This document shows, piece after piece, positions 1 to 28,119 of a stretch of 28,119 nucleotides of DNA (position 1 is the first letter of the stretch; every line of letters begins with the position of its first letter). The notes under the pieces are model-generated. The model was not told where the DNA came from and searched no databases. It saw only the letters and a program-made list of their open reading frames with translations. Where the stretch lies: the NCBI GenBank assembly GCA_913020725.1, contig CAJWCD010000033.1, positions 1 through 28,119 on the forward strand. Reading direction: 5' to 3'. The position numbers and the translations under genes were made by a program. This DNA is from an uncultured Pseudomonadota bacterium. GTDB taxonomy: Bacteria > SAR324 > NAC60-12.

Positions 1-269
1 TTGGAAACGAGCAGGTATTTTGACAATTCCGACATTGTCATTGGACGAGCGGCGCGGTCGAGTGCAGCCAGCAAATCGAACTGAGGCAACGTGATCCCGA
101 AATGGGTGCGCAGCCGCTGCCGCAGGTGATTCTCGATGCGCGTCGTGCAGCGCAGCGTCTTGAGCCAGAGGCGTAGGCGTTGTTTGGCAACGGCTTCCGG
201 AACCGTGGGGTCTGCCGCAGGCGCTGTGGATTCCAGAGTTGCCGCCGATGTGTCTTCGGAATGGTCCAT
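1..269 (-). CDS. MarR-family transcriptional regulator (5' part; runs off window)
   Basis: Not in the ORF track. Hand translation from ATG at 269: MDHSEDTSAATLESTAPAADPTVPEAVAKQRLRLWLKTLRCTTRIENHLRQRLRTHFGITLPQFDLLAALDRAARPMTMSELSKYLLVS. The 'LRLWL..LR', 'ITLPQFDLLAAL' and 'MTMSELS' segments fit the MarR proteins that accompany anthraniloyl-CoA monooxygenase genes. Starts 2 nt after the upstream stop. Confidence 0.9.
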   Translation of the reverse strand, partial: MDHSEDTSAATLESTAPAADPTVPEAVAKQRLRLWLKTLRCTTRIENHLRQRLRTHFGITLPQFDLLAALDRAARPMTMSELSKYLLVS

Positions 270-271
270 GT

Positions 272-2566
272 TCAAATCAGTCCGGCTTGCGCCTGTGCGG
301 CCGCACGGGCGAGGTTGCGCTCGAGTTGATCCTTGCCGGAAAGGTACTGCACGGGCCATGGCTGATCAAGATAGCCTTGCTCAGCGGCGGCATGAAGCGT
401 CCAGTACGGATTGCTCAGGTGCGGACGGGCGAGGCAGCAGAGGTCGGCACGTCCGGCAGCGAGGATCGAGTTGACATGGTCAATCTCGTAAATGTTGCCC
501 ACCGCCATCGTCGCCATGCCGATTTCGTTGCGGATGCGGTCGGCAAAGGGGGTCTGGAACATGCGTCCGAAGATCGGCTTCGCGTCCGGATGCGTCTGCC
601 CGGAAGAAACGTCAATCAGATCGCAGCCTGCCTCCTGAAAGGCTTGCGAGATGCGCACGGCGTCTTCGGCATCAACGCCACCGTCCATCCAGTCGGTTGC
701 AGAAATCCGCACCGACATTGGCTTGTGCTGCGGCCACACGGCCCGTAGCGCCCGGAACACCTCCAGCGGGTAGCGCAGCCGGTTTTCCAGCGAACCACCG
801 TATTCGTCTGTGCGCTGGTTCAGGAGTGGAGTGAGGAATGCGGAGAGCAGATAGCCGTGGGCGCAGTGCAGTTCCAGCCAGTCAAATCCGGCGATCTCGG
901 AGCGTTCGGTGGCTCGCACGAAGTCGTCTCGCACGGCATCCATGTCGGCACGGGTCATGGCGCGGGGCACTTGGTTCACCGATGAGTACGGAACTGCTGA
1001 AGGACCGAGCAGGGGCCAGTTCCCGGAAGCGAGCGGCTGGTCCATGCCCTCCCACATGCGTTTGGTCGAGCCTTTGGGCCCGGCATGTCCAAGCTGGATG
1101 GCGATTTTGGCAGGTGTTTTTTGATGCACGAAACCCACGATGCGCTGCCATGCCGCAACGTGTTCATCGGTGTAGATGCCTGCGCATCCGGGAGTGATGC
1201 GGGCGTCGGGGGAGATGTCGGTCATTTCCGTGAACAGCAGCCCCGCGCCGCCTTGCGCCCGCGCTCCGTAGTGGACGAGGTGGAAGTCATCCGGAATGCC
1301 GTCCGTGGCACTGTACATTGACATCGGCGAAACGACTACGCGGTTGGGGAGTTCGAGGTCACGGACCCGAAACGGCACAAACATCGGCGGCACGGGATTC
1401 CGCAGCCGTTCTGCGGTTGCTGTTTTTGCAAACCATGCTTCCACGCTTTCCAGCCAGTTTTGATCTCGGAGTCGCAGATTTTCGTGGCTGACGCGCTGGC
1501 TGCGCGTGAGCAGACTGTAGGCAAACTGGATCGGTTCGAGGTGCAGGTAGCGCTCGACTTGCTCGAACCACTCCGTGCTGTTGCGGGCACTGCTTTGTAT
1601 CCGGAGGACTTCCAGCCGACGACGCTCCTCGTAATCCCGGAGGGCTTGTGCGAGCGACTTGCCCTGGTGAAGTTCGTCGGCGAGATCGATTGCGTCTTCC
1701 AGTGCCAGCTTGGTTCCGGAGCCGATCGAGAAGTGCGCGGTGTGTGCGGCATCGCCGAGCAGCACGAGATTCCCGTGCGACCAGCGGGTGCAGTTGATGC
1801 GCTGGAAATTGATCCAACTTGTCGAGCCGCGCAAGTGCTTCGCGTTGCTCATCAGCGCATTCCCGTCTAGGTACTTGGCGAAGACCCGTTCGCAGGTGGC
1901 GATGGAGTCCTCGGCAGACATTTGCTCAAACCCGAAATTCTGCCACGTCTGCTCCGAGCATTCGATGATGAAGGTGCTGGTTTCCAGATCGAATTTGTAG
2001 GCGTGCGCCCAAATCCAGCCGTGTTCGGTGTTCTCGAAAATGAAGGTGAACGCTTCAAAAACCTTGTGGGTTCCGAGCCAAGTGAACTTGTTCAGACGAA
2101 CATCAATGTCGGGCTGGAAGTGTTCGGTGTGCTGTTCCCGGAGAGCGCTGTTGATACCGTCGCAGGCGACAATCAGGTCCGCATCCGGAAAGGTGGAAAC
2201 GTCTTCGACCTCGTGTTCGAACTCCAGCCGCACATCCAACTCCCGCGCCCGTTCTTGCAGGATGCGGAGCAGGTGCTTGCGGCCCAATCCGCAGAAGCCG
2301 TGGCCCCCGGAAGTGACGACTTGCCCCCCGTAATGCACGTCAATGTCGTCCCAGTGCGCGAAGTTGCTGAGGATGCGCTCGGCGCTGACGGGATCGTTGA
2401 CTTGCAGGCGCTCCATTGTTTGATCCGAGAACACCACCCCCCAGCCGAAGGTGTCGTCTGGACGGTTGCGCTCCACCACAAAAATGTCATGCTCCGGGTT
2501 GCGGAGCTTCATGGAAATGCCGAGGTAAAGTCCCCCCGGACCTCCGCCAATGCAAACAATTTTCAT
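272..2566 (-). CDS. abmA: Bifunctional salicylyl-CoA 5-hydroxylase/oxidoreductase (2-aminobenzoyl-CoA monooxygenase/reductase family)
   Basis: 764 aa. N-terminal FAD monooxygenase domain ([40 protein letters not shown]) fused to an Old-Yellow-Enzyme NADH:flavin oxidoreductase domain ([33 protein letters not shown]). Confidence 0.92.
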
Positions 2567-2590
2567 TAGAATTTTCCTGTCCCTTAGCGC

Positions 2591-2619
2591 ATCCTATGCC
2601 GAAATTTCAGGAAAAGCAA
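2591..2619 (-). promoter_or_regulatory. Putative sigma70 promoter of abmA-marR
   Basis: On the minus strand TTGCTT (2619-2614), 17-nt spacer, TAGGAT (2596-2591), about 25 nt upstream of the abmA ATG. Confidence 0.55.
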
Positions 2620-2623
2620 TAAA

Positions 2624-2639
2624 ATTTTAGGCTTAAAAT
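2624..2639. promoter_or_regulatory. AT-rich palindromic operator, candidate MarR site
   Basis: ATTTTA-GGCT-TAAAAT dyad just upstream of the predicted -35 of an operon that encodes a MarR regulator. Confidence 0.6.
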
Positions 2640-2735
2640 AACTAGGTGCGAAAATGGAGATCGCAGCAGTGCGGCAGGAAATTTCAGGAGGAACGCAGAA
2701 GCAGAAACCGGAAGCGCATCCGCGCTCCCGATTGC

Positions 2736-2870
2736 TTAGGGATGGACCTCAAGGATGGACAGGGAAGCGATGATCCTGCGAACACGAATATGCAAGCGTG
2801 GACGTACTGCGGTTAAGGTGCGCATGTCTAGTTGCAACTGTCCATCAGGATGCTTGAAGTGATACGTCAT
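2736..2870 (-). CDS. Small hypothetical protein (44 aa)
   Basis: MTYHFKHPDGQLQLDMRTLTAVRPRLHIRVRRIIASLSILEVHP, preceded by AAGGAG-TAGC-ATG, in otherwise unoccupied intergenic space. Confidence 0.4.
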   Translation of the reverse strand: MTYHFKHPDGQLQLDMRTLTAVRPRLHIRVRRIIASLSILEVHP

Positions 2871-3010
2871 GCTACTCCTTGGATGGGGTGGATGATCCGA
2901 GCCTATATTGAAGATCAGCAACTTGGATGCCAAACTGGAGATTCGGAGAAGTTGAGCACTTGGATAAATTTGGTCATAGCTTGTTGAATTAAATGCGTAA
3001 ATGCGAAAAC

Positions 3011-3412
3011 ATGCACCCCGCCTACTTTGATACGCAGTTTCGGACTCCGGAGATTGTGGCGGTTTGGCCGCAGGAATTTGTGGTCGTGACTGCCTTTGCG
3101 ACGACCGGAACGCAGTGGCCTCCGGAGCAGAACGATGCTGCGGATCAACGGCTGGAATCCGAACTCCGGGAGCGTGGTGGTTGGCTGGTGCGGGTGACGG
3201 GGTTTTCGCCCTCCACGGGCCACGCGGAACCAGGTTGGGCGTTTGAGATGTCCTTTGAGAAAGCATGTGATTTGGGGATGTGCTACCTACAGGACGCGCT
3301 TTATCATGTTGCAGGTGATGCCCTGAGCGTCAGTTTCTGCAACGCCCGCCGCAAGCGGGTTCTGCTCGGTTCGTTTCGGGAACGCTTGCATCTGGAAATT
3401 TTCGAGACCTGA
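3011..3412 (+). CDS. DUF3293 domain-containing protein
   Basis: Pattern 'FVVVTAF..G......QN..AD..L...L....G.....G.....EPG.......A..LG....QDA' fits DUF3293. Start at 3011 (MHPAY) preferred; 2993 possible. Confidence 0.7.
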   Translation: MHPAYFDTQFRTPEIVAVWPQEFVVVTAFATTGTQWPPEQNDAADQRLESELRERGGWLVRVTGFSPSTGHAEPGWAFEMSFEKACDLGMCYLQDALYHVAGDALSVSFCNARRKRVLLGSFRERLHLEIFET

Positions 3413-3450
3413 ATTTTGTCCGATTCCCACGCAGCCCTCCTTGTGAGAGT

Positions 3451-3479
3451 TTGGCATTGCCCCGCAGATGCGTTAGAAT
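3451..3479 (+). promoter_or_regulatory. Putative sigma70 promoter of the glc operon
   Basis: TTGGCA-N17-TAGAAT, 45 nt upstream of glcD. Confidence 0.6.
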
Positions 3480-3524
3480 TTCCGCACGACTGTTGCCCCC
3501 GAACTCTGCTAAGGAAAAGCTCTC

Positions 3525-5036: not shown

Positions 5037-6277
5037 AACATGTGTTTCTGCCAGAAACCATCGAGGATGCTCAAGCTTGGCTTCGGAAACGCCTTGCCGC
5101 CCAACAACCGTTTGCGGTGCGTGGTGCGAATTCCCGCTTCCATCCGCAGGAAATCCCCCCCGGTCCCCCTTTTCCAAAGGGGGGAGATGAGGTCGCCACT
5201 CCGGAAATTCTCTCGACTGCAAAGCTGACGCGCACCAACTTCTTTGATCCGGATGACATGGTGGTCGGGGTCGAGGCGGGCATGACGGTGGCTGCGTTGC
5301 AGGCGTTGCTCGCCGAACAGGGGATGGTGCTGCCCGTCAATCCGTGGTTTGCAGAATCCACCATCGGTGCGGCGTTTGCCTGCAACGACAACGGCCCGAA
5401 CCGTCTCAACATGGGCGGCTTCCGGGATTGTGTCATCGGCATCGAGTACCTCAACGGCAACGGCGAGCGCGTCCACGCTGGAGGCAAAGTCGTCAAGAAC
5501 GTCTCCGGATATGACCTCTGTCGCATGCAGATCGGCAGCCTCGGTGGGCTGGGCGTGATCACGGCGCTTAACTTCAAGGTGATACCGCAGCCGGTCGCCC
5601 CGCACGGCCTCTACGGACGTTTTCCGGACAGCACCTGGCAGCAGCGGGTTGCAGAATTGCACTCGGCCCGAATTCCAGTGGATTGGATTCAGGCGTTTGC
5701 TCCTGCCGAATCCGGCAGCATGGACTGGCTGCTCGGTATTGGTTTTTCTGGAAACGCTGCTCGGCAGCAGCGCATCGAACGCGAAATCCAAACAATCTGC
5801 AGAGGCGATTTGCAGCTCGTAGCCGCTGGCGAAACGCCTCTGGGTTTGTCCTTTCTTCCCGGAACCGACCGTTTCACGGGTTGGGTTCCGAAGCTGCGAC
5901 AGCTTTGGAAACTCCCTGCGCAGCACCTGCACCTGATGACCCTGCTGACGACGAGTGCAGCACTACATCCCACGCACTTGGAGTCCATTCGCAGCGAGCA
6001 AACCCGGATGGTTGTACATCCCATCGGCGCGGATTTGCACTGCTTCCTCGACAGCGAAGACGCAACCACGCAGCGCGAGTTCATCGCATCGTTGCAACCC
6101 ATGCTGCGCCAGATGCAAGCCAAGCTGGTGCTGGGTAACGCGGCATCCGCAATCGGCTACTCCGATCTCGGTGAGTTCGCCCAGCCTCCGGGGTATGCGC
6201 TGGTGCAACGGCTCAAGCGTCACCTTGACCCCGCAGGCGTGTTCCACGCACCATTTTACGAGCAGCCATCAACATGA
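5033..6277 (+). CDS. glcE: Glycolate oxidase FAD-binding subunit GlcE-like
   Basis: FAD_binding_4 features (VEAGMT, TIGA, GGKVVKNVSGYDL, GSLGGLGVIT, C-terminal LKRHLDPAGVF); ATGA overlaps with both glcD and glcF. Confidence 0.85.
   Translation: MKHVFLPETIEDAQAWLRKRLAAQQPFAVRGANSRFHPQEIPPGPPFPKGGDEVATPEILSTAKLTRTNFFDPDDMVVGVEAGMTVAALQALLAEQGMVLPVNPWFAESTIGAAFACNDNGPNRLNMGGFRDCVIGIEYLNGNGERVHAGGKVVKNVSGYDLCRMQIGSLGGLGVITALNFKVIPQPVAPHGLYGRFPDSTWQQRVAELHSARIPVDWIQAFAPAESGSMDWLLGIGFSGNAARQQRIEREIQTICRGDLQLVAAGETPLGLSFLPGTDRFTGWVPKLRQLWKLPAQHLHLMTLLTTSAALHPTHLESIRSEQTRMVVHPIGADLHCFLDSEDATTQREFIASLQPMLRQMQAKLVLGNAASAIGYSDLGEFAQPPGYALVQRLKRHLDPAGVFHAPFYEQPST
5151..5185. repeat. C/G-rich hairpin repeat in-frame in glcE
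   Basis: AAATCCCCCCCGGTCCCCCTTTTCCAAAGGGGGGA; stem CCCCCTTT/AAAGGGGG; encodes EIPPGPPFPKGG. Confidence 0.65.
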
Positions 6278-7662
6278 ATTTTCGCGATCTCTCCTTCTCG
6301 GAAGTCACCAGTGAGCGGTTGACTTTCGGTTCCGAAAACAAAACCTCGCAGCAACTGTTCCGGGAAGCAGAATTCGACAACATCCTCAAATGCGTCCACT
6401 GTGGATTGTGCCTCGACAGTTGCCCAACTTACCGTGAACTTGGCGACGAGAAAGACTCACCACGCGGACGACTCTACCTGATGCGCGGGTTGTGGGAAGG
6501 GGAACTGGACCTGACTCCGGAAGTCACCGCACCCCTCAGTCGTTGTCTCGACTGCCGTGCCTGCGAAACCGCGTGCCCATCTGGAGTACCCTACGGAGAA
6601 TTGCTGGAAAAAGCGCGAGGCGTGATTCACGAAACCCAACCGCAAAGCCTGAAGGAACGGATGCTCAGGACATTGCTGCTGAAGGGACTGTTCCACTCGA
6701 CCTTCCTGCTTACGCTGGCCAGCAAGTTGCTGAAACTCTACGCCGCCAGCGGCTTGCCTCAACTGATCACCAACACTGCATTCGGCAAGCTGTTGCCGTC
6801 GCAGTTTGTGTTCCAGCAGCACCTGCTTCCGGACTGCTCCGGGCAGTCCTTCAAGCAGAAGTACGCCGATCAGGAACTCGGTTCCACGCACGGAGCCGCA
6901 AGCCTTGGGCGAGTCGGCCTGTTCTCCGGGTGCATCATGGATGTCTCGGAGGCGGCGATCCACGAAGCGACGCTGAAGCTGCTGCGGGGCATCGGCTACA
7001 CGGTGGTGGTTCCCGGCAAGCAAGGCTGTTGTGGAGCACTCCACGTTCACAGCGGCGACCGCAAGACTGCCCGTGGTTTGGCCCTCAATAATCTGGATGC
7101 GTTTGAGGAGCGCGAGTTTGAGGCAATCATCACCAACGCCGCCGGATGCAGTGCCCAACTCCGGGAGTTCCATCACCTGTTTCCGCAAAACCATTCTGGC
7201 CATTCCAGGAATTGGAACGCCATCGAAGGCCGGATTGTGGACATCCTTGAATTCCTCTCCCGGCATCTGGAACCAATCCAGCGGCTGAACTGGCGAACCG
7301 ATGAAAATGTGGTGCTGTATGATGCACCTTGCCACCTGATGCATGCCCAGCAGGTGGATGATCACCCGCGAGCACTGGTCAACAGCCTGCCGGGGGTAAC
7401 GCTGGTTCCGCTCACCGAGTCGAATTGGTGCTGTGGCTCTGCGGGAATCTACAACTTGGTGCACCCCGACTTGTCCAGTGCCGTGCTGGAGCGTAAAATG
7501 GCTTCGGTGCGGGAAACCTTGCAAGCCAACCCGCAGGCGACCACGCTGGTGACGGGCAATCCGGGCTGTCTTTACCAAATCCGTGCGGGCATCCGTGCTG
7601 CTGGGCTGCCGTTGCGAGTGATCCATCCGGCAGTGTACCTTGCCGAACGACTGAGGGGATGA
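6274..7662 (+). CDS. glcF: Glycolate oxidase iron-sulfur subunit GlcF
   Basis: Two 4Fe-4S motifs (CVHCGLCLDSCP, CLDCRACETACP), SPRGR, and two CCG domains (GCCGAL, WCCGSAGIYN, GNPGC). Confidence 0.92.
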   Translation: MNFRDLSFSEVTSERLTFGSENKTSQQLFREAEFDNILKCVHCGLCLDSCPTYRELGDEKDSPRGRLYLMRGLWEGELDLTPEVTAPLSRCLDCRACETACPSGVPYGELLEKARGVIHETQPQSLKERMLRTLLLKGLFHSTFLLTLASKLLKLYAASGLPQLITNTAFGKLLPSQFVFQQHLLPDCSGQSFKQKYADQELGSTHGAASLGRVGLFSGCIMDVSEAAIHEATLKLLRGIGYTVVVPGKQGCCGALHVHSGDRKTARGLALNNLDAFEEREFEAIITNAAGCSAQLREFHHLFPQNHSGHSRNWNAIEGRIVDILEFLSRHLEPIQRLNWRTDENVVLYDAPCHLMHAQQVDDHPRALVNSLPGVTLVPLTESNWCCGSAGIYNLVHPDLSSAVLERKMASVRETLQANPQATTLVTGNPGCLYQIRAGIRAAGLPLRVIHPAVYLAERLRG

Positions 7663-7923
7663 ATGCCGGAAATCAGTCGTTTTCTGGGAATGGTCATCCA
7701 GATGTACTTCAATGAGCATAATCCGCCACATTTTCATGTCCAGTACAACGAGTAGCAAGCTGCTATTCTGATTGAGAATCTTGGTGTGATGGAAGGGGAA
7801 CTCCCCGCAAAAGCCCTGAGCTTGGTTGTAGAGTGGGGACAGGAACACCAAGAGGAACTGCTTGCCAATTGGAACAGCCTACGAAAATCGGGGCAGTTCC
7901 ATAAAATACAACCCCTCGCCTGA
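7663..7923 (+). pseudogene. DUF4160-family (DhiT-like putative toxin) gene interrupted by an in-frame TAG
   Basis: Hand translation MPEISRFLGMVIQMYFNEHNPPHFHVQYNE*QAAILIENLGVMEGELPAKALSLVVEWGQEHQEELLANWNSLRKSGQFHKIQPLA. DUF4160 signatures (MPEISRF, EHNPPHFH, EW...H..EL..NW, KI.PL) lie on both sides of TAG 7753-7755. ATG directly follows the glcF stop. Confidence 0.88.
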
Positions 7924-7930
7924 GAATTAG

Positions 7931-8242
7931 ATGATCTCGATCAAAACCGCTGAACATTTGAGTGATTATCGAGTCCGCCTCAAGTTCAGCAACAATCTGG
8001 TGGGCGTGGCAGACTTAGAGGACACAATCACCAACGATCAGCGGTCGATGTTTCACGAACTCAGCAATCCCGTCAAATTTCAGCAATTCCAAACGGATGG
8101 CTATACGATATGCTGGAAAAACGGGCTGGATTTGGCTCCAGAGTATTTGTTTTTCCTAGCTTTTCGCAACGATCCAACTTGGCAACAACAGTTTTTCGAT
8201 TGGGGTTATCTGAAGCTGGAAGCCACGGAAGCAGCCGCATGA
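7931..8242 (+). CDS. DUF2442-family protein (DhiA-like putative antitoxin)
   Basis: 'Y.VRLKFSN..G..DL', 'F..L..P..F', 'TICWKNGLDLAPEYL'; usual partner directly downstream of DUF4160. Confidence 0.85.
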   Translation: MISIKTAEHLSDYRVRLKFSNNLVGVADLEDTITNDQRSMFHELSNPVKFQQFQTDGYTICWKNGLDLAPEYLFFLAFRNDPTWQQQFFDWGYLKLEATEAAA

Positions 8243-9504
8243 CCTCGCCCACTGCATTCCTGCATTCCCTCTTTGAAACGGCGGTCGCCAGTACGCAGCC
8301 CGCACAGTGTGTGCCGCCTAATCTTCCGGAACCACCCAAGGGTCGCACGCTGGTGATTGGTGCCGGGAAGGCGTCCGCAGCGATGGCACGTGCCGTGGAG
8401 CAGCACTGGCCCGGAGACCTTGAAGGGCTGGTGCTGACGCGCTACGGCCACGCCGTTCCCTGTGAGCGCATCGAGATCGTGGAGGCGGCTCATCCGGTTC
8501 CGGACGAAGCGGGACGGCAGGCCGCAGAGCGGATGTTGGAGCTGGTGCAAGGACTGGCTGCGGACGATCTGGTGCTGTGTCTGATCTCCGGAGGCGGTTC
8601 GGCGTTGCTCACCTTACCTGCGCCGGGGTTGACGTTGGAGGACAAGCAGTCAGTCAATCGGGAACTGCTGCGCTCCGGAGCCACAATCCACGAGATGAAC
8701 TGCGTCCGCAAGCATCTCTCCACGATCAAGGGTGGACGCCTCGCTGCTGCTTGCCATCCGGCGCGGGTACTGACGCTGGCAATTTCGGATGTTCCCGGAG
8801 ACGAGCTTTCCGTGATTGCCTCCGGGCCGACCGTTCCGGATCCATCGACCTTTGCCGAAGCACAGGACGTGCTGGAGAAGTACACGATCACCGTGCCGGA
8901 GGCTGTTCGTACTCATTTGGAACAGGCCGAGGACGAAACGCCAAAACCCGGCGATCTGCGTCTCGTCAACACCGAGACCAAACTGATCGCCACCCCGCAG
9001 CAAATGCTGGAAAGTGTTGCCGAGCAAGTCCGGAAGGCGGGCCTCACGCCGTTGATTCTCAGCGACCGCATCGAGGGCGAAACCCGTGATGTAGCAAAAG
9101 TTCATGCGGCCATCGCCCGTCAAATCCAGACGCATCAGCAGCCTGTCGCGCCTCCGGCGGTGATCCTCTCCGGAGGTGAAACCACGGTGACGGTGCGCGG
9201 CAAGGGCAAGGGCGGGCGCAACTCGGAATTCGCGCTGGCCTTGCTGGACGACTTGCGCGGGCTACCCGGAATTGCTGCGCTTGCCTGCGACACCGATGGC
9301 ATTGACGGTTCCGAGGACAACGCGGGCGCCATTCTCACTCCGGAAACTTTTTCACAGGCGGAAACCCTTGACCTCTCGCCTGCCGAATTTCTGAGCCGCA
9401 ACGACGCCTATTCGTTTTTTCAACAGGTGAACGGACTGGTGGTTTCTGGTCCAAGTCTGACGAACGTCAACGACTTGCGGGCGATTTTGGTGGAGCCAGC
9501 TTAA
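8239..9504 (+). CDS. Glycerate 2-kinase / TtuD-like hydroxypyruvate reductase (DUF4147 + MOFRL)
   Basis: VIGAGKASAAMA, EAAHPVPD, LISGGGSALL, VRKHLSTIKGG, ISDVPGD, IASGPT, SGGETTV, GGRNSE, DTDGIDG, TNVND. Start MTSP at 8239 (ATGA overlap with the DUF2442 stop). Confidence 0.92.
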   Translation: MTSPTAFLHSLFETAVASTQPAQCVPPNLPEPPKGRTLVIGAGKASAAMARAVEQHWPGDLEGLVLTRYGHAVPCERIEIVEAAHPVPDEAGRQAAERMLELVQGLAADDLVLCLISGGGSALLTLPAPGLTLEDKQSVNRELLRSGATIHEMNCVRKHLSTIKGGRLAAACHPARVLTLAISDVPGDELSVIASGPTVPDPSTFAEAQDVLEKYTITVPEAVRTHLEQAEDETPKPGDLRLVNTETKLIATPQQMLESVAEQVRKAGLTPLILSDRIEGETRDVAKVHAAIARQIQTHQQPVAPPAVILSGGETTVTVRGKGKGGRNSEFALALLDDLRGLPGIAALACDTDGIDGSEDNAGAILTPETFSQAETLDLSPAEFLSRNDAYSFFQQVNGLVVSGPSLTNVNDLRAILVEPA

Positions 9505-10347: not shown

Positions 10348-10376
10348 TCCGCCTTAAAAACCGAAACCAAAAACTT

Positions 10377-15930: not shown

Positions 15931-16932
15931 TTACAGTTCCACGAGTGTGCCCAGGCCGTCTCGCTCGGCGCAGTCCAGCACGATGCGGGCGGCGACTGCA
16001 TCCTGCACGGCGACTCCGCAGGATTTGAAGACGGTGAGCTGTTCCGCAGTGGTGCGTCCAGCTTTGGTTTGGTTGACGATTTCGCCGATTTCTGCATGGA
16101 TGTGATCAGGTTGAATCACGCCCTGGGCAATCGGGATCACCAAGTCTCCGGTTTCGGCAAGAGCGGATTCGCGGGCATCCACCACGACCAAGCCGTTGCG
16201 GATGGTTTCGTTGTCAATCTCCTGCATGTCTGGACGGAAAGAACCGACCCCACTGACATGACAGCCGGGTTTGAGATCGTTGAAGTTGATGACGGGAGTG
16301 GTGGAGGTCGTGGAAGTGCAAACAATGTCGGCGTCACGCACCGCTTCCGTTGAGGAATTCACGGCGGAGACCTCCTCCGGAATCGGGGAGCGCCCTCGCA
16401 TTTCCTCGACAAAGGCACGAACGTGTTCCGGATTCGGACTGAAAACGCGCACTTTGCGGATGGCTCGCACCGCGCACATCGCTTCAAGCTGCGCACGGGC
16501 CTGCACTCCGCTACCAAGGATCGCCACCGACTCCGCGTCCGGACGCGCTAGCAAAGCGGCGGCGGCTCCGGCTCCAGCTCCGGTGCGAGTGGCCGTCAGC
16601 GCCTCGCCGTCCAGCAGGGCTTGAGGAACCCCGGTTTCCGGATGCAGCACCAGCACAACCGCATGGATCAGCGGAATGCCGCGCTCGCGGTTTTTCCCGA
16701 ACACTGACACCAGCTTAACCGCCAAGCTGCCCTCTCCGGGTACGGAGGCAGGCATCGTCAGCAGCACTCCTTCCTGTTCTGGAACCTGAACCCGACTGCG
16801 CAACGGAGCCTCGGTTTGTCCTGTTGAGAGCAATCCAAATGCCCTTTTCATGCCCGCAATGGCCTCGGCCATCGGCAGGGCTTGCTCAACATCACTGCGG
16901 GAGAGAATCCGAAGCTGCATCGCCGGGTTCAA
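15931..16932 (-). CDS. Ornithine cyclodeaminase / mu-crystallin family protein
   Basis: VKLVSVF..N, TG.P.ALLDG..LTATRTGA, LGSGVQA, DADIVCTST, GVGSFRP, AETGDL, FKSCGVAVQD. Start is TTG 16932 or ATG 16920. Confidence 0.92.
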   Translation of the reverse strand: MNPAMQLRILSRSDVEQALPMAEAIAGMKRAFGLLSTGQTEAPLRSRVQVPEQEGVLLTMPASVPGEGSLAVKLVSVFGKNRERGIPLIHAVVLVLHPETGVPQALLDGEALTATRTGAGAGAAAALLARPDAESVAILGSGVQARAQLEAMCAVRAIRKVRVFSPNPEHVRAFVEEMRGRSPIPEEVSAVNSSTEAVRDADIVCTSTTSTTPVINFNDLKPGCHVSGVGSFRPDMQEIDNETIRNGLVVVDARESALAETGDLVIPIAQGVIQPDHIHAEIGEIVNQTKAGRTTAEQLTVFKSCGVAVQDAVAARIVLDCAERDGLGTLVEL

Positions 16933-18354: not shown

Positions 18355-18388
18355 GGTGTTCGGCAGTGGCCCTCACCGAATCCCGTAC

Positions 18389-19021
18389 TCAAGAGGGGGG
18401 TGTTTTTTCGTAGACCGTATACACCTTCTCCTTGATCTCCTGATGCATCTTCTGCGCGTCGCGGATCACCGTGTTGCAGGCTTCCTTGAACTGCTCTATC
18501 GTCTCCGGATTGTCATTGGCGCTCTTGAAATTCTTGTACTGCTCGTAAAGTTGCCCCACGTCCTTGGACATGTTCTTCTTGAGGACGATGGCGACGGGAA
18601 GACTCTGCTTGAGTTCTTCCTTGCTGCCGCTGCTGAGGACTTGCTCTCCGGCAAGCTTGAGGGAATTCCTCTTTGCGGCCACGGCTTGATATTGTTGCTG
18701 GGTCTCTTCCGGAACCGACTGTACTGCGTCAGGGACACTGGTCTCCGGAGCTGCTGCCGATGCGAATTTTCCTTCAGTGGCAGGGGCTTCGTCGGGGGCA
18801 GCTCCTGCGTCTGCCGTTGCCTCTTCTGTTTCTGGGGCCGCAGCATCGGTGGCAGGGGCTTCGTCGGGGGCAGCTCCTGCGTCTGCCGTTGCCTCTTCTG
18901 TTTCTGGGGCCGCAGCATCGTTGGAGTTCTCGGCAGCAACGGCCTCGGCGGCTTCGGCCATTTCCTCTGTTACGTCTGCTTCGGTCTCTTCAGTAGAGAT
19001 ATCGGGGGTTTCATCGGCCAT
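18389..19021 (-). CDS. Acidic Ala/Glu/Pro-rich low-complexity protein with helical C-terminal domain
   Basis: Start MADETPD at 19021 with SD GAGGAG; roughly 100-aa disordered-looking N-terminal region containing a 24-aa duplication; Lys/Glu-rich helical C-terminus. Confidence 0.8.
   Translation of the reverse strand: MADETPDISTEETEADVTEEMAEAAEAVAAENSNDAAAPETEEATADAGAAPDEAPATDAAAPETEEATADAGAAPDEAPATEGKFASAAAPETSVPDAVQSVPEETQQQYQAVAAKRNSLKLAGEQVLSSGSKEELKQSLPVAIVLKKNMSKDVGQLYEQYKNFKSANDNPETIEQFKEACNTVIRDAQKMHQEIKEKVYTVYEKTPPS
18777..18920. repeat. Perfect 2 x 72-bp intragenic tandem duplication
   Basis: 18777-18848 is identical to 18849-18920; encodes DAAAPETEEATADAGAAPDEAPAT twice. Confidence 0.95.
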
Positions 19022-19143
19022 GGTGTCTCCTCGGATTCCGGTGGCTTGCTCCAAGCGAGCGGCTTGAGTTCACTAATGGATTACTGTAAATTAACAGGCA
19101 CTTCAAGCCATTTGACGTTTGAGCCTAAAGAATTGACCACCGA

Positions 19144-19467
19144 ATGCAGAAATTGAGACAGCGCAAGCCCGAAAAAATTTTACTTCAGGATGACCTCTAC
19201 ATCCTCTGGCGCGACGGGCGCGAAAGCCATTACAAATTTCACGACCTGCGCTGTGCGTGTCCTTGTGCAAGCTGTGTCAACGAACTAACGGGTGAGCGGG
19301 TGCTGAAGCCGGAGTCGGTGCCAAAGCATGTCCATGCGTCTGGCAGCGAATATGTGGGCAACTACGCCCTGCGCATCCACTGGAGTGACGGCCACAATAC
19401 CGGCCTCTACAATTTTAAACACCTGCGGGCACTTGACGAGGCTCGCACTTCCCAAAGCGAAACATGA
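19144..19467 (+). CDS. DUF971 / GBBH-like N-terminal domain protein
   Basis: I.W.DG..S.Y, LRCACPCASC, VGNYALRIHWSDGH.TGLY.F..LR. Confidence 0.9.
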   Translation: MQKLRQRKPEKILLQDDLYILWRDGRESHYKFHDLRCACPCASCVNELTGERVLKPESVPKHVHASGSEYVGNYALRIHWSDGHNTGLYNFKHLRALDEARTSQSET

Positions 19468-19937
19468 CCGAACTGGACGGCGACCTGATCGCCACTGACC
19501 TTTCCATCGCGATCGTGGTGTCGCGCTTCAACGAATTCATCGCGGAACGGCTGTTCGAAGGTGCAGTGGACGCTTTCGTGCGTCACGGTGGAGACCGCGA
19601 GCGCCTGACGATTTCCCGCGTTCCCGGAGCCTTTGAGTTGCCGCTCATTGCCAAGCGGCTTGCCCAGAGCGGTCGTTATGATGCAGTGGTTTGTCTTGGT
19701 GCGGTGATCCGGGGGGCGACTTCGCACTATGATTACGTCTGCTCAAACACGGCGAGTGGCATTGCCTCGGCAGGCTTGGACACGGGGGTGCCGGTGAGCT
19801 TTGGTGTCCTCACCACGGATACTTTGGAGCAAGCTATCGAGCGTTCCGGGGGCAAGGCGGGCAATCAGGGACGCCACGCCATGGCGAGCGTGATCGAGAT
19901 GGCGCGGTTGCTCCTGAAAATTCCGGTGGAACGCTAA
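19464..19937 (+). CDS. ribH: 6,7-dimethyl-8-ribityllumazine synthase
   Basis: IAIVVSRFN, VPGAFELP, YDAVVCLGAVIRGATSHYDYV, PVSFGVLTTDTLEQAIERSG. Confidence 0.96.
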   Translation: MTELDGDLIATDLSIAIVVSRFNEFIAERLFEGAVDAFVRHGGDRERLTISRVPGAFELPLIAKRLAQSGRYDAVVCLGAVIRGATSHYDYVCSNTASGIASAGLDTGVPVSFGVLTTDTLEQAIERSGGKAGNQGRHAMASVIEMARLLLKIPVER

Positions 19938-20022
19938 CTGCATTATCGTGGGGTGAGAGTTAGCCACGAGTCCGGCATGGGGTCGGTTTTGGTTTTTGCT
20001 AACGTCACTGCCGAGAGGTATC

Positions 20023-20205
20023 ATGCAATCACTCCTAAAGTGCGCAATTGCTCGGCTGGAAGATCTCTCCCGTCAAAATGTCTCCATTTCTAGGGGACTA
20101 GACCTCCTTGAAGCCTCAGCTCAAAGCTGCGGGGAATTGGTGGTCATCAATGTCATGCGGGACTGTTTCCAGGAACTCCTACAGGAGCAACATTGCCACG
20201 CTTAA
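20023..20205 (+). CDS. Small hypothetical helical protein (60 aa)
   Basis: GAGAGG SD before ATG 20023; MQSLLKCAIARLEDLSRQNVSISRGLDLLEASAQSCGELVVINVMRDCFQELLQEQHCHA. Confidence 0.6.
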   Translation: MQSLLKCAIARLEDLSRQNVSISRGLDLLEASAQSCGELVVINVMRDCFQELLQEQHCHA

Positions 20206-20370
20206 TTCCTTTCGGGTGAGGGGGGACCGCCTCTCCTCACCTCGATCCTCCAAGCACCCGTCTCTCAGCGGTTCCTTCAGATCACCAGACCCCAACTCCA
20301 AAACGTTGCTGAACTTTCCGGCGGTTGGTGTTCCGAATACACATACGGATTGGATTTCTCGCAAACCAGT

Positions 20371-20399
20371 TTGCAGGTTCCCCCACAGCCCGATAGTTT
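20371..20399 (+). promoter_or_regulatory. Putative sigma70 promoter of the glycosyltransferase
   Basis: TTGCAG-N17-TAGTTT, 39 nt upstream of the GTG start. Confidence 0.4.
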
Positions 20400-20438
20400 G
20401 TTGAGTTTAGACGAGACCACAACACAAGAGGCTTAACG

Positions 20439-21611
20439 GTGCTGGAGGGCAGGAGGGTGGTGCTGGTGCATGACTGGCTCAACGGCATGCGCGGCGGGGA
20501 GAAGTGTCTGGAGGTGCTCTGTGAGTTGTTCCCGGAGGCTCCCATCTACACGCTCATCCACGAAGAAGGACGCTTGAGTGCGACCATTGAGGCGCATCGG
20601 ATTGTACCCTCGTTCATTCAACATCTGCCGCACGGCATCTCACACTACCGCCACTTCCTCCCGCTCTTTCCAACCGCAATCGAACAGTTCCGTTTCGATG
20701 CCTACGATCTGATCATCAGCACCAGCCATTGTGTCGCCAAGGGCGCAAAGCCGGGACCGGAAACCTACCACTTTTCTTACGTCCACGCGCCGATGCGCTA
20801 TGTGTGGGACCTCTTCGACACCTACTTCCGGAGGACGCAAACCCATCCGGGAGTGCGCATCGCGGCTGAACTGGTGCGGCCCTACCTCAAGAACTGGGAT
20901 CGCCGTAGCACCTCGCGAGTGCACACGCTGCTCTGCAACAGCCGCAACGTGCGGCGCAAAATCCGGGAGTACTACTCCCGCGAGGCGCAAGTGATCCATC
21001 CACCCGTGGATGTTGAGCAGTTCCAGCCCGGCTCCCGGAAATCCGACTGTTATCTCATCATCAGTGCCTTTGCTCCGAACAAGCGCATCGACCTCGCGGT
21101 GGAAGCCTTCAACCGGCTCAAGCTTCCCCTCAAAATCGTGGGCAGCGGACAGGACGAAGCCTACTGCCGGAGCATCGCCCAAGATCATATCGAGTTCTTG
21201 GGAGAACAATCCTCCGAGGCACTGGTCGCGCTTTATCAAGAAGCTCGCGCCTTCGTGTTTCCTGGAGAGGATGATTTCGGCATCACGCCTCTGGAAGCGC
21301 AGGCCTCCGGAACGCCAGTCATCGCTTTTGGAGCAGGCGGTGCGTTGGAGACAGTCAATGAGCGCACCGGACTTTTCTTTCATGAACAGCGCATCGACGC
21401 GCTCTGTGCCGCAATCGAGGAAATGGAGCGGCGGTATTCGGAGTTTGATCCGGACGACCTTGTGCGCAACGCCGCCCGTTTTGGACGCGAACGCTACAAG
21501 CAGCAGATGGCTCATGCCATTGAGTATGGCTATCGGCAGTGGAAGGACGGGCTGGCAGAACCTGCGGTTCCAGAATCCATGCAAGCACCCGAATCCTCAG
21601 AGGTTTCATGA
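20439..21611 (+). CDS. Glycosyltransferase family 4 (GT-B)
   Basis: VHDWL.GMRGGEK, YDLIISTSHCVAKG, YVHAPMRY.WD, KRIDLAVEAF, EDFGITPLEAQASGTPVIA (EX7E). Confidence 0.93.
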   Translation: MLEGRRVVLVHDWLNGMRGGEKCLEVLCELFPEAPIYTLIHEEGRLSATIEAHRIVPSFIQHLPHGISHYRHFLPLFPTAIEQFRFDAYDLIISTSHCVAKGAKPGPETYHFSYVHAPMRYVWDLFDTYFRRTQTHPGVRIAAELVRPYLKNWDRRSTSRVHTLLCNSRNVRRKIREYYSREAQVIHPPVDVEQFQPGSRKSDCYLIISAFAPNKRIDLAVEAFNRLKLPLKIVGSGQDEAYCRSIAQDHIEFLGEQSSEALVALYQEARAFVFPGEDDFGITPLEAQASGTPVIAFGAGGALETVNERTGLFFHEQRIDALCAAIEEMERRYSEFDPDDLVRNAARFGRERYKQQMAHAIEYGYRQWKDGLAEPAVPESMQAPESSEVS

Positions 21612-22420: not shown

Positions 22421-22431
22421 CTTTCAGCAAT

Positions 22432-22487: not shown

Positions 22488-22511
22488 GAATAAGACGAAG
22501 ATTTGAATCCC

Positions 22512-24159: not shown

Positions 24160-24186
24160 TTCATAACCTATTTCTGAGAAGACCAA

Positions 24187-24576: not shown

Positions 24577-24590
24577 GTTGGCATTCTTCC

Positions 24591-25199
24591 TTGCCTGACC
24601 CATCTGTCGCTTGCGAGCAGTGCCGCGCCCCGCTGATTTCGCTCCTGTACTGCTTCGGATGCGACGCCCTTCAGTTTCCGTCCGGAGAGGTCACCCCTCA
24701 CGAGGCCCTTGGCATCCCGGAATCCTTTCAGGTGGACCTTGATTTGCTGGAAGGGCGTTACCAGCAACTCACGTTCGAACTGCATCCGGATTTCTACGCC
24801 AACGCCAGCAAGCGCGAACAGCGGCAGAGCGAACTCGCCTCAGCCGTGCTCAATCGGGCCTACAACACCCTCTGGAATCCCGTCGCCCGCGCCAATGACC
24901 TGCTACCCCGATTGGCGCAGGGCACGGTATTGGACGAACGGCAACTGCCAGCGGGCTTCTTGATGGAAATGTTTGAAGTGCAAGAATCCCTTGACGACTT
25001 GCTGGATTCTGGAACTCCGGACGAAATCGTCCAAACTCGTACAGATCTAGCAGAACGCCACGCATCCTTGATTTCCGGACTTGCCCTGCACTTTGCAGAA
25101 GCGGCAGCCACAGCCCCTCCGTCCACACTCCAAACTCTGCAAACCGACCTCAACGCAGAACGCTACCTGCACCGCTTGCTGGAACGCTTTCCAGTTTGA
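24591..25199 (+). CDS. hscB: Co-chaperone HscB (J-domain with N-terminal CxxC..CxxC)
   Basis: CEQC...CFGC, LHPDFY J-domain motif, LNRAYNTL.NP..RA, FLMEMFE; TTG start. Confidence 0.9.
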   Translation: MPDPSVACEQCRAPLISLLYCFGCDALQFPSGEVTPHEALGIPESFQVDLDLLEGRYQQLTFELHPDFYANASKREQRQSELASAVLNRAYNTLWNPVARANDLLPRLAQGTVLDERQLPAGFLMEMFEVQESLDDLLDSGTPDEIVQTRTDLAERHASLISGLALHFAEAAATAPPSTLQTLQTDLNAERYLHRLLERFPV

Positions 25200-25286
25200 G
25201 TTGGTGAGTTTGGTGAGTCTGCTGCCTACTGACTCGTGCCTTTTAAACTTTGGAACTTTGCCCCTTTGGAACTCTGAAACTTGAAG

Positions 25287-27101
25287 ATGGAACGCATCAT
25301 CGGTATTGACCTTGGCACCACTAACAGCTTGGCGGCAACGGTGATTGAAGACGGTCCGGAAGTGGTGGCTCCGTCTGGAGAAAACCCCATCACCCCTTCG
25401 GTGCTCACCCGCAGCTCCGGAAACTGGATCGTGGGAGAAGCTGCCGTTGCACAACGCTTGACGGCTCCGGAGCAGACCGTTTATTCCGTCAAGCGACTGA
25501 TGGGGCGCGATGTTGAGGAACTGGCGGAAGAAATCAAGGAGTTGCCGTATGCCGTGATTCCAGCGCAGCGCAAGCTCGTGAAGGTCCGCATCGGCACTGA
25601 GGAATTCACGCCCCAAGAACTCTCAGCGGAGATTCTCCGGGAGGTGAAGCGTCGGGCGGAAACCGCACTGGATGAGACAGTCTCAAAAGCTGTGATCACC
25701 GTTCCTGCCTACTTCGACGATGCCCAGCGCCAAGCCACCCGCGATGCCGCGAAACTCGCCGGATTGGAAGTGGTACGCATTCTCAACGAGCCGACCGCCG
25801 CCGCCATCGCCTACGGATTGGACGAGCGCAAGGACGGGTATGTGGCTGTGTACGATCTTGGTGGCGGCACCTTTGACCTCTCGCTGCTCAAGCTTTCCGG
25901 AAAGCTCTTCAAGGTCATTGCCACGCATGGCGACACACGGCTGGGCGGGGATGACTTCGACCGCGAGTTGATGACTCTGCTCCGCGAACGGCTGCTGGCC
26001 GAACATCCGGAAGTTACATTTGAGCGTGCAGAAACCCAGCAGCGTCTGCGGAAAACGGCGGAGGAGATCAAGATTCGGCTCAGTGGCTCTCCAGAAACCG
26101 CATACACCCTTGAACTTCCAGAATGTGGAATCATGCCGCAGGGCTTGGTGACGCAAGCGGAGTTTGAGGAACGCATTGCTCCTTTGATTGAGCGGACGCT
26201 GGCAAGCTGCCGGAAGGCACTCCGCGCTGCCGGATTGACCGCAGAGCAGATGGATGAGGTTGTCTTGGTGGGTGGCTCCACCGTGGTTCCGGGAGTCCGC
26301 AAAGCAGTGGAGCGCTTTTTCGGACGTAAGCCGCATGTTGCCATTGATCCGTACAAGGTGGTGGCCATCGGAGCCGGGATTCAGGGACACCTGCTCGCCG
26401 GGGGCCGACGCGATTTTCTGTTGCTGGACGTCATCCCGCTTGCGTTGGGGATTGAGACGCTAGGCGGTACCTTCAGCAAGCTGATCACCGCGAACACGAC
26501 AATTCCGGCAGAGGTGGCCGAAATGTTCACCACCAACGTGGACAACCAAACCGCCATTGACGTCAACATCTATCAGGGCGAGCGCGAACTCGTGGAGGAT
26601 TGCCGCAACCTCGGACGTTTCAAGCTCCGGGGCATCCCGCCAATGCCAGCGGGATTACCGCTGGTGGAAGTCACGTTCCGCGTTGATGCGAACGGCCTGC
26701 TCATCGTTTCCGCCAAGGAGCAGCGCAGCGGCACCGTAGCCGAAATCGAGGTGATCCCCTCGCACGGACTCACCCAGTCCGAAATCGACCACATCCTAGA
26801 GGAGTCCTTTGACCACGCGATCAGCGATTTCAACACCCGTCAGCTCATCGAATTTGGGCAGACGGCCGCACGCATGTTCCGGGGGATCGAGCAGTGCTGG
26901 ACTGTTGCCGAAGCAACGCTGTCCACGGAGGAGCGTCAGGAACTCCGGACTCAAATGGACGTGGTTCGCAGTTCGATGCAGGGAGGTGACGCCGCAGCTC
27001 TCAAGCGGCAGATTGACGCACTAGGGGAACTCACGCGCCCACTCGCGGACACGGCAATGGGTCGAGCAGTGCTAGAGGAATTGCAAATATCGGCGGGGTG
27101 A
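25287..27101 (+). CDS. hscA: Hsp70-family chaperone HscA
   Basis: [55 protein letters not shown]; follows hscB. Start ATG 25287 or TTG 25281. Confidence 0.9.
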
Positions 27102-27110
27102 TCGGGGGGC

Positions 27111-27193
27111 AGAAATAGAAAACCTCAGCCGAAGTCGTCAGGGGGCTGACCGACTTCAACCGGGGTTGAAGACAACCGTCAGACGGTCGTCTT
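27111..27193 (-). terminator. Double hairpin between convergent hscA and the phasin-like gene
   Basis: Hairpin 27121-27167 (core GAAGTCG-TCAG/CTGA-c-CGACTTC, outer AACC/GGTT) is followed on the minus strand by TTTCTATTTCT; second hairpin AAGAC-a-ACCGTC-a-GACGGT-c-GTCTT (27169-27193). Confidence 0.65.
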
Positions 27194-27482
27194 AGGCAGC
27201 GGGAGAGACCACTTCAGCGGCGTTCATCCACTCGTTGGATTGCTTCCGCATTTCCTGCCAAGTCTTGCGGATTTGCGTGTACGACTCGTCCAGAGCGTTC
27301 AACTGCATCGGCTTCAGACTCAGGGCCGCTTCCGTTGTAGGCAGCTTCTCGATAGCACTGTAGGTGTTTTCCAGCATTTGCTTCTGGAACTTCTCCGCTT
27401 CACCAAGTCCTTTTTCCCACTGTTCGCACCAGTCATTGTACGCTTTTATGACCGGGGTCAGCATCGTCGTTTTCTTAACCAT
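27192..27482 (-). CDS. Small amphipathic helical protein, phasin-like
   Basis: 96 aa, SD AGGAG, all-helical Q/E/K-rich with periodic W/M/L; own AT-rich upstream region and terminator. The phasin label is an inference. Confidence 0.7.
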   Translation of the reverse strand: MVKKTTMLTPVIKAYNDWCEQWEKGLGEAEKFQKQMLENTYSAIEKLPTTEAALSLKPMQLNALDESYTQIRKTWQEMRKQSNEWMNAAEVVSPAA

Positions 27483-27613
27483 CTGATATCTCCTGCTTAT
27501 TTGATTGGGGTTGAGGTGACCACTAAAGAAACGTCAGTTTAGCACTAAAAACAAAAAAAGAAAGTATAATTGTAATTTTTATGTAAAAAAGCTAAAAGAC
27601 ACCTAAATGTGGA

Positions 27614-28119
27614 TCACTCCCTCAAGTTCTTGGGGCTGGAAAGCAGTTGGCCCGCCGCGCCGTAGCAGAGGAAGTGGTCGAGATGGACCGAAACCGCGTC
27701 GTCCGGAGCGCAGGCAGTTTGTGGAGGCGTGGTGGCACACACGACTTCTCCGGATTCCAGTTGGACTTCGACGGATTGAGACGCCCCCCGGAATTCCACC
27801 TGACGGACAACTCCCCGAACCCCTCCTGAATTGGCAGCTTGGAGCCGCAAGTTCTCAGGACGCACCAAGAGCGTGGCCGTCGGCTCTCCCACTTCCGGGG
27901 GCACGGTCACGACACCGAGCGAGCCGTGGAGCTTGCCTTGAGCCCAGCGCACAGGTAGCTGGTTGGCTTCACCCACAAAGGTTGCGGCCCAGAGCGAACT
28001 TGGCTGCTGATAGACCTCTTTCGGAGTTCCGGACTGCACCAGTGTTCCCCGATTCATCAGCACCATCTGGTCCGAAAAGGTGATGGCCTCGCTCTGGTCG
28101 TGCGTGACGAGGATCGTGG
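27614..28119 (-). CDS. ABC transporter ATP-binding subunit (PotA/FbpC type, TOBE domain), 3' part
   Basis: The frame runs in from the window edge: TILVTHDQSEAITFSDQMVLMNRG.LVQ.GTP.EVY..P....AATFVG..N, VRPENL, C-terminal TOBE-like strands. Confidence 0.9.
   Translation of the reverse strand, partial: TILVTHDQSEAITFSDQMVLMNRGTLVQSGTPKEVYQQPSSLWAATFVGEANQLPVRWAQGKLHGSLGVVTVPPEVGEPTATLLVRPENLRLQAANSGGVRGVVRQVEFRGASQSVEVQLESGEVVCATTPPQTACAPDDAVSVHLDHFLCYGAAGQLLSSPKNLRE

Follow-up and report, generated by a model that had tools for sequence, protein, structure and literature searches.

A highly iterated TCCGGA palindrome in a SAR324 lineage follows a helix-face spacing rule whose sign differs between genera

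We report that the hexamer TCCGGA is a highly iterated palindrome in an uncultured SAR324 bacterium, and that neighbouring copies of it are spaced with the helical repeat of DNA, avoiding the same helix face in one genus and preferring it in others. The window, that is, the whole 28,119-base stretch analysed here (positions 1..28119; contig C33 of the genome under study, G000), holds 76 copies distributed across its full length, one per 370 bp, as its share of 7,675 copies genome-wide. One hundred dinucleotide-preserving shuffles of the window gave 9.78 ± 3.45 copies with a maximum of 18, and none of them reached 76. A first-pass annotation made from the letters alone had counted about 74 copies against about 9 expected, and had proposed a lineage-specific iterated palindrome tied to an orphan methyltransferase (MTase) or to methyl-directed repair. 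Our program count and the shuffles bear out both of its figures, and all seven positions that it gave as examples (196, 3121, 8587, 9029, 9339, 22351 and 24681) are in the site list.

The same word dominates the genome, which comprises 3,446,541 bases in 204 contigs (longest 92.6 kb; 56.7% GC; 93.3% complete). At one site per 449 bp, or 2,227 per Mb, TCCGGA is the commonest of all 4,096 hexamers and the one with the highest observed-to-expected ratio (O/E) on base composition, 7.35; the runner-up among the other 63 six-base palindromes, TGATCA, reaches 2.61. The other palindromes built on a CCGG core are depleted (ACCGGT 0.32, GCCGGC 0.21, CCCGGG 0.18), as are most six-base palindromes in this genome, GGGCCC (0.05) and CGTACG (0.06) among them. 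This general depletion coexists with almost no DNA methyltransferases found there.

Codon usage in G000 moderately favours TCC, GGA, CCG and CGG, and amino-acid order contributes as well: across the 2.78 Mb spanned by 2,674 crude gene calls, permuting the codons predicts 1,125 ± 33 coding sites, and this expectation rises to 1,951 ± 50 in 20 synonymous-codon shuffles. The observed number is 6,611 of the 7,675 (1,995, 1,078 and 3,538 in the three codon phases), an O/E of 3.4 over the synonymous shuffle and of 3.7, 1.9 and 4.2 by phase. Short intergenic spacers are equally enriched, with 240 sites in 989 spacers (142,456 bp, 52% GC), an O/E of 6.4 that makes TCCGGA their top hexamer. The 3.4-fold excess and the enriched spacers together rule out a codon or dipeptide artefact. 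A dispersed repeat of the REP/MITE type is likewise ruled out, because most sites are genic, the sequences of site pairs are nearly all unique (see below), and the bases outside the hexamer are near background, the sole elevated bases being T at −1 and A at +1, at 36%. DNA uptake sequences (USS/DUS) are usually 9–12 nt long and non-palindromic, and TCCGGA is unlike them in length and symmetry. Finally, the strand skew of the half-site pentamers does not correlate with GC skew (91 contigs, r 0.11, p 0.30; fractions 0.499 versus 0.491), which, with the palindromic nature of the hexamer itself, rules out a polar chromosome signal such as Chi or a KOPS-like CCGGA. It is therefore scarcely credible that codon, dipeptide or repeat content, or a polar single-strand signal, produces the excess of TCCGGA, despite the codon preference and the contribution of amino-acid order.

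TCCGGA is also abundant in related genera. We scored the 45 genomes of the family by comparing TCCGGA with its reversed word, AGGCCT. In the three genomes of the genus of G000 (g1; G000, G001 and G002), the counts are 7,675/254, 5,254/265 and 5,500/389, a 14–30-fold enrichment. Among the 18 genomes of g19, enrichment is 3.9–32-fold in 15 and 1.6-fold in three that are 51–57% complete. Enrichment amounts to 3.9–5.9-fold in g2, 3–8.4-fold in g5, and 2.6–4.7-fold in g7, g4 and g11. There is none in g3 (0.8–1.2-fold in 9 of 9 genomes), and g6, g9 and g10 lie at about 1. Every genome of the sister family is at about 2-fold or less, and three are depleted: G015, G020 and G017 contain 40, 37 and 133 copies against 182, 151 and 987 of the reversed word, which suggests TCCGGA-specific restriction pressure in those lineages. 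The proposal of a lineage-specific iterated palindrome is thus upheld, as the word is abundant genome-wide, occurs in all frames and in spacers, survives codon shuffling and is common to related genera. This abundance characterises a clade and resides at the level of DNA. As a side observation, four g19 genomes (G025, G034, G035 and G038) are TCCGGA-poor, with ratios of 1.6–3.9 at 51–59% completeness, and reflect either a heterogeneous genus or mixed bins.

The distances between TCCGGA sites in G000 are periodic at 10.4–10.5 bp. Spectral power at this period is 46 for distances (d) of 6–320 bp and 77 for distances of 12–105 bp, compared with at most 6.2 for control words that do not overlap TCCGGA, 7–15 for words that do (CCGGAA, CCGGAG), and a maximum of 4.9 among 200 random-position controls. 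Troughs fall at integer helical turns (about 21, 31.5, 42, 52.5 and 63 bp), the same-face spacings, and peaks at half-integer turns (about 16, 27, 37, 48 and 58 bp), the opposite-face spacings. In 3-bp distance windows at two to nine turns, the same-face counts are 6, 6, 10, 22, 27, 46, 36 and 61, with 51.3 expected, a depletion that is 8.5-fold at two to three turns and has vanished by about nine. The corresponding opposite-face windows hold 54–81 pairs each, about the long-range baseline, and the rule in this genome is therefore one of same-face avoidance rather than opposite-face attraction. Summed over two to seven turns, 117 same-face pairs compare with 413 opposite-face pairs (binomial p 1e-39). 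At a single turn there is an exception: 37 pairs at d = 9 and 22 at d = 10 (TCCGGA N3-4 TCCGGA), versus 17 expected, form an excess that runs opposite to the avoidance at two to six turns, and the sample from G001 holds 5 pairs at d = 9.

The rule is visible both in coding pairs (1,263) and in non-coding ones (168), and it appears in every d mod 3 class. The pair sequences are nearly unique (1,430 distinct among 1,475, spread over 189 contigs), which rules out a repeat family as the source, and 12-mers in the DNA between paired sites recur at most 4 times. The short same-face pairs that do occur in G000 (n = 33) lie scattered, with 28 inside coding sequence. The signal also depends on the whole word: pairs of complete sites give a power of 77 and a folded O/E running from 0.50 to 1.33, pairs of a complete site and a half-site give 12–25, and pairs of half-sites, as well as other NCCGGN words, give about 2. 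The spacing rule is specific to the complete palindrome TCCGGA. Taken together, these data show that something senses a full double-stranded TCCGGA together with a neighbour within about nine turns, at B-DNA pitch.

We compared the sign of the rule across genera by counting pairs at d = 30–33 (same face) and d = 35–38 (opposite face). In g1, the counts are 11/87 for G000, 7/65 for G002 and 2/30 for G001, against expectations of 68, 42 and 31. The opposite holds in g19, where G021 has 178/17 (29 expected), G026 162/32, G029 148/29, G022 108/31, G030 91/18 and G037 68/5; 15 g19 genomes have at least one pair at these distances, of which 14 show an in-phase majority and one is tied. Same-face pairs also predominate in g5 (G006 48/16, G051 24/13, G052 13/11), whereas g2 is mixed (G041 31/81, G003 70/62, G042 128/83). 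One turn closer, at d = 20–23 versus 25–28, the counts are 8/69 for G000, 2/23 for G001, 3/42 for G002, 12/36 for G003 and 20/13 for G006. Folded spectra of the relatives, computed from 400-kb samples with about 0.5–2 expected pairs per distance, give same-face and opposite-face O/E values of 0–0.1 and 2.0 in G001 (g1), 2.7–2.9 and 0.6–0.7 in G021 (g19; 43% GC, TCCGGA O/E 8.8), about 2 and about 1 in G006 (g5), and 1.2 and 0.6–0.75 in G003 (g2). In G003, pairs less than 29 bp apart are depleted at all phases. All three g1 genomes avoid same-face pairs, while a preference for them is seen in g19, in g5 and, weakly, in a single g2 genome.

Given these properties, the reading that we favour, with a chance that we put just short of even, is that TCCGGA is an iterated palindrome read on double-stranded DNA by a putative bivalent factor of two-fold symmetry, most plausibly an abundant sequence-specific chromosome-binding protein. 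We infer the reader, the route by which sites accumulate (selection or biased repair) and the cellular role. Each half-site, a TCC/GGA flank with the CCGG core, would add independently to binding, and exactly multiplicative flank statistics would follow. Weak selection across the genome, or biased repair, would maintain many interchangeable sites and so account for a high density in which positions are not conserved. Two factors sitting on the same face within two to seven turns would touch one another; g19, g5 and part of g2 would favour this contact, and in g1 it would be disfavoured, or its geometry rotated by about half a turn, so that same-face pairs are purged. The sign of the rule differs between genera, and because DNA physics cannot vary by genus, we take the difference to point to a protein interface. 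A more specific proposal, to which we give a chance somewhat below even, is that a sequence-specific chromosome-architecture protein, present family-wide, docks on TCCGGA at thousands of places and that selection on contact between its copies writes the spacing rule into coding and intergenic sequence, with a geometry rotated by about half a turn in one genus.

The period of the rule equals the helical repeat of B-DNA and the effect fades within about 90 bp, as would also be expected if TCCGGA were intrinsically bent or anisotropically flexible and selection on curvature, for straight DNA in g1 and curved DNA elsewhere, set the spacing. Several results argue against such pure DNA mechanics. 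Other NCCGGN words share the CCGG core and are not phased to TCCGGA, so that the outer T and A matter. A/T-rich dinucleotides, the main determinants of curvature, are unphased around isolated sites: their amplitude in G000 is 0.81% compared with a null 95th percentile of 1.04%, and it lies within the null in G001, G003 and G021. No general curvature code or A/T phasing was thus seen around the sites. Above all, the sign flips between related genera, and mechanics would leave the 7-fold abundance without a reason. We consider this explanation quite improbable.

The statistics of the hexamer point to its halves. With increasing Markov order from 0 to 4, the O/E of TCCGGA in G000 declines from 7.35 through 6.51, 3.37 and 2.43 to 1.00, and in spacers alone the maximal-order value is 1.02. 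CCGG by itself has an O/E of only 1.30. The excess first becomes visible at the pentamer TCCGG/CCGGA, with 3.1 on composition and, at 1.56, the top maximal-order O/E of any pentamer. T precedes CCGG in 29,918 of 58,108 cases on both strands (P = 0.515), and TCCGGA makes up 26.4% of CCGG occurrences versus 26.5% predicted from independent flanks. The first-pass annotation had held that enrichment should outlast correction for 4- and 5-mer frequencies. Formally it does not, but the excess has merely moved to the overlapping half-sites, and the hexamer is as expected from its 4- and 5-mers because the pentamers carry the excess themselves. Its other two expectations, that the enrichment should withstand codon correction and extend beyond the window, agree with the synonymous shuffles and with the 7,675 sites across the genome. 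Multiplicative flank statistics fit additive contributions of two half-sites to a two-fold-symmetric binder, and equally a mutational bias acting on half-sites.

Such a neutral, context-dependent bias of mutation or repair towards T before CCGG (or its equivalent, A following it) on whichever strand, in which the palindrome is the overlap of two favoured pentamers, has further points in its favour, since TCCGGA is missing from low-GC islands and its sites turn over at ordinary rates. In 296 kb aligned between G000 and G001 at about 82% identity, a single species pair, TCCGGA is conserved at 36%, 32% and 39% of sites in the three codon phases and at 44% in non-coding DNA, compared with about 40% on average for other hexamers in the matching class (standard deviation 0.10–0.19). 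Such ordinary conservation indicates that the sites are largely interchangeable. Codon conservation inside versus outside the motif is 0.71/0.61 for TCC, 0.51/0.44 for GGA, 0.74/0.70 for CCG and 0.57/0.63 for CGG; three of the four codons are thus slightly more conserved inside (+0.04 to +0.10, with CGG at −0.06), against a neutral expectation. Moreover, a bias towards a pentamer predicts no 10.5-bp rule dependent on both flanks, and no reversal of such a rule from one genus to another, and we regard this explanation as improbable.

A methylation-linked palindrome would have a cognate MTase, for example an amino-MTase of the P0001 type described below, driving abundance and spacing through methyl-directed repair, sequestration or replication. 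Cyanobacterial HIP1 and the alternative iterated palindromes of cyanobacteria co-occur with MTases that recognise their internal sequence (PMC4390886). METHYLTRANSFERASES and other candidates were sought in G000, which at 93.3% completeness does not prove absence. None of the three g1 genomes gave a C5-MTase (PF00145), and the 18 g19 genomes yielded only fragments or a pseudogene, in three of them. Neither a C5-MTase nor Vsr was found in G000, and very-short-patch repair by the two was rejected. Searches of G000 for MutH and SeqA also gave no match, and in Escherichia coli the Dam/SeqA system leaves no spacing footprint. Large TCCGGA-poor genomes carry many MTases. A type I HsdM gene is truncated by a contig end (G000:C168:5149-6130; L003:901-1881), and G000 may have a type I restriction system that escaped assembly.

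The only orphan MTase-like gene found in G000 is P0001, whose product has 579 aa and which lies outside the window (G000:C49, minus strand; L001:514-2253). The protein has an N-terminal tail rich in R, E and D, a motif I of DPFMGGGT and a motif IV of NPPY. Its Pfam matches are weak (N6_N4_Mtase at 30.4 bits with a cut-off of 26.7, UPF0020 and D12), and the nearest atlas clusters are auto-named DNA methyltransferases in which 89–100% of members carry PF01555. At E ≤ 0.001, 19 of 21 relatives have an ortholog, including all eight sister-family genomes (the match in G010 is weak, E 3.7e-5, and absent at E ≤ 1e-20), and 33 of 45 family genomes do at E ≤ 1e-20. Motif I is invariant across orthologs except in g5 (DPFMGSG). 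Motif IV is TSPP[YF]PG in 23 of 23 orthologs examined from g2, g19, g10, g3 and g6, whereas the three g1 species have NPPY, CPPY and RPPY, with codons AAT, TGT and CGT against AGT or AGC elsewhere; the serine was lost there through three different single-base changes. Degenerate forms also occur in g4 (APPA), g5 (RPPL) and g7 (NPPM/HPPL). Judged by its sequence, P0001 looks like a repeatedly inactivated enzyme retained for another role. An AlphaFold model of its domain, based on six sequences, reached a pLDDT of 56.5 and was too poor for use. A regular-expression search for other NPPY/SPPY open reading frames (ORFs) returned 26 matches, 14 within gene calls; the seven of those 14 that were scanned were PrmC, transporters and metabolic enzymes rather than DNA MTases, and a 459-aa ORF on contig C4 had no Pfam match.

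P0001 lends the methylation model some support, as an ortholog is retained in every strongly enriched genus (g1, g19, g2 and g5) and the motif IV serine is replaced in all three species of g1, the sole genus with the inverted rule. However, orthologs are also present in the TCCGGA-poor genera g3 (7 of 9 genomes), g6 and g10 and in the TCCGGA-depleted sister-family genomes G015, G017 and G020; g3 has an intact P0001 yet is TCCGGA-poor, and motif IV is dead in g4, g7 and g5, yet g5 is enriched and prefers same-face pairs. Neither the presence of P0001 nor its motif state follows the enrichment or the spacing rule, and it was rejected as the cognate MTase. The tie to an orphan MTase or methyl-directed repair suggested by the first-pass annotation therefore finds no backing in these searches, and we regard a methylation-linked origin as unlikely.

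Avoidance could also arise if a two-site (type IIE/IIF-like) TCCGGA endonuclease, the cell's own or one that it meets, purged same-face pairs in g1. Many CCGG-family nucleases require two sites, most other 6-bp palindromes are rarer than expected in G000, and the scarcity of TCCGGA in G015, G020 and G017 makes TCCGGA-specific restriction likely in the order. This mechanism leaves unexplained both the 7-fold abundance and the preference of g19 and g5 for same-face pairs, and in G000 no NgoMIV-type or Bse634I-type nuclease was matched, in searches that had no positive control, nor was a partner MTase found. We judge it very improbable.

Several points also weigh against the bivalent reader that we favour. 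Family searches in G000 found no reader protein: besides the nuclease types just named, there was no match to SeqA, MutH or histone-fold families, in a genome that is 93.3% complete. Single sites are not conserved above ordinary hexamers, and a site-specific function is hence not supported. The exact flank independence would also fit a mutational process at the level of half-sites. The mixed state of g2 makes a simple two-state flip too simple, and the spectra of the relatives come from small samples with few expected pairs per distance. There is no precedent for such a footprint. In E. coli K-12 (NC_000913.3), GATC pairs number 317 at d = 20–22 and 313 at d = 25–27; since SeqA leaves no spacing footprint there, the pair effect of TCCGGA is exceptional.

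Within the window, the pattern can be followed at individual features. The glycerate-kinase-like ORF (8110..9504, plus strand; named in the first-pass annotation) contains eight sites, at 8325, 8499, 8587, 8674, 8835, 9029, 9169 and 9339, in all three codon phases; sites 8587, 9029 and 9339 are offset by 0, 1 and 2 mod 3, in line with the three-frame occurrence noted there earlier. The nearest named records for this gene are uncultured marine metagenome-assembled genomes with Deltaproteobacteria and Pseudomonadota labels, at 91% and 89% protein identity. Seven pairs lie less than 65 bp apart, at 36, 47, 48, 50, 51, 58 and 61 bp. Four of these are opposite-face pairs: 5200..5253 (48 bp centre to centre, 4.6 turns), 18708..18749 (36 bp, 3.4 turns), 25016..25079 (58 bp, 5.5 turns) and 27702..27754 (47 bp, 4.5 turns). 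Three sites at 25355..25471 are spaced by 61 and 50 bp, both of which miss a whole number of turns by more than 1.5 bp, and the pair at 16376..16432 (51 bp, 4.9 turns) is the window's closest to a same-face spacing.

Two site-free stretches that had been remarked on earlier are indeed empty: 6834..8324 (1.5 kb, 55.2% GC), which spans the module then named TA, and 18750..20826 (2.1 kb), whose GC of 56.8% is native. A single gap like the latter has a probability of about 1% at native TCCGGA density, and the genome has 92 gaps longer than 2 kb where an exponential distribution predicts 66, a mild excess only. Density is near-Poisson (mean 9.08 and variance 10.93 per 4-kb window, 759 windows), with an O/E of 4.6 to 8.2 across the GC classes of these windows and a slight dip near start codons (1.4 versus 2.4–2.6 per kb). 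TCCGGA deserts are mostly low-GC islands, such as the first 16 kb of contig C12. That stretch (G000 C12:1-16000; GC 37–48%), which holds the largest TCCGGA-free gap of the genome at 8 kb, is probably recently acquired DNA. In practical terms, TCCGGA density distinguishes native DNA from DNA gained recently.

Although iterated palindromes were described 30 years ago, no function for them has gained acceptance. TCCGGA represents a second, independent system of this kind outside cyanobacteria, with an additional sharp 10.5-bp signature of genus-dependent sign that narrows the mechanisms to a reader of double-stranded TCCGGA sensing a neighbour within a few turns, and that turns a compositional oddity into a source of testable predictions. 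It is also a DNA-level constraint able to shape synonymous, and even amino-acid, choices over thousands of genes in an abundant ocean lineage. A full-text literature search, outside whose coverage most subscription journals lie, returned no report of TCCGGA over-representation in any bacterium, none joining SAR324 with TCCGGA, and no description of helix-face spacing of an iterated palindrome. If the proposed architecture protein exists, it would be the first nucleoid protein whose rotational geometry is legible directly from genome sequence, and it would offer a route to the purpose of iterated palindromes such as HIP1.

TCCGGA resembles HIP1 (GCGATCGC) of cyanobacteria in being a short, hyper-abundant palindrome that occurs in coding and non-coding DNA, exceeds what codon usage explains, and is lineage-wide with exceptions. 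Its density of 2,227 per Mb falls inside the HIP1 range of 300–2,700 per Mb (PMC4390886). The two differ in that HIP1 is an octamer with an O/E given as 15–300 or 55–228 (PMC5861425; PMC4390886), whereas TCCGGA is a hexamer with an O/E of 7 in another phylum. HIP1 sites are preferentially conserved between species according to Xu et al. (PMC5861425), while TCCGGA sites are not conserved above controls between G000 and G001. HIP1 is accompanied by an MTase (PMC4390886), and a cognate MTase for TCCGGA was not found in the 93.3%-complete G000. Finally, the available parts of the HIP1 papers describe only an 18–94-kb periodicity (PMC4390886, PMC5861425), in contrast to the 10.5-bp pair rule. Cyanobacteria also have alternative iterated palindromes, namely GGCGCC, GCsGC and, in Oscillatoria PCC 10802, rCCGGy (PMC4390886). 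As with TCCGGA, lineages have thus adopted differing words, one of them a hexamer with a CCGG core; these alternatives, as described there, come with matching MTases and in cyanobacteria only, whereas TCCGGA is confined to T/A flanks with the other NCCGGN palindromes depleted.

The proposed reader has a functional likeness in SeqA, which in E. coli binds pairs of hemimethylated GATC sites on the same helix face within a few turns (PMC2691817) and is thus a bivalent reader of two palindromes, as we propose for TCCGGA. A SeqA homologue gave no match in G000, and SeqA lacks a genome-wide footprint (317 versus 313), in contrast to the 8–10-fold TCCGGA footprint with a sign that varies by genus. 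Prokaryotic genomes also carry a selected dinucleotide periodicity of 10–11 bp, which is weak and in-phase (Atzinger and Lawrence 2020; PMC7537859). TCCGGA shares with it the helical-repeat period but differs in both nature and strength: A/T dinucleotides are unphased around its sites, and it is one single hexamer that is nearly excluded at integer turns.

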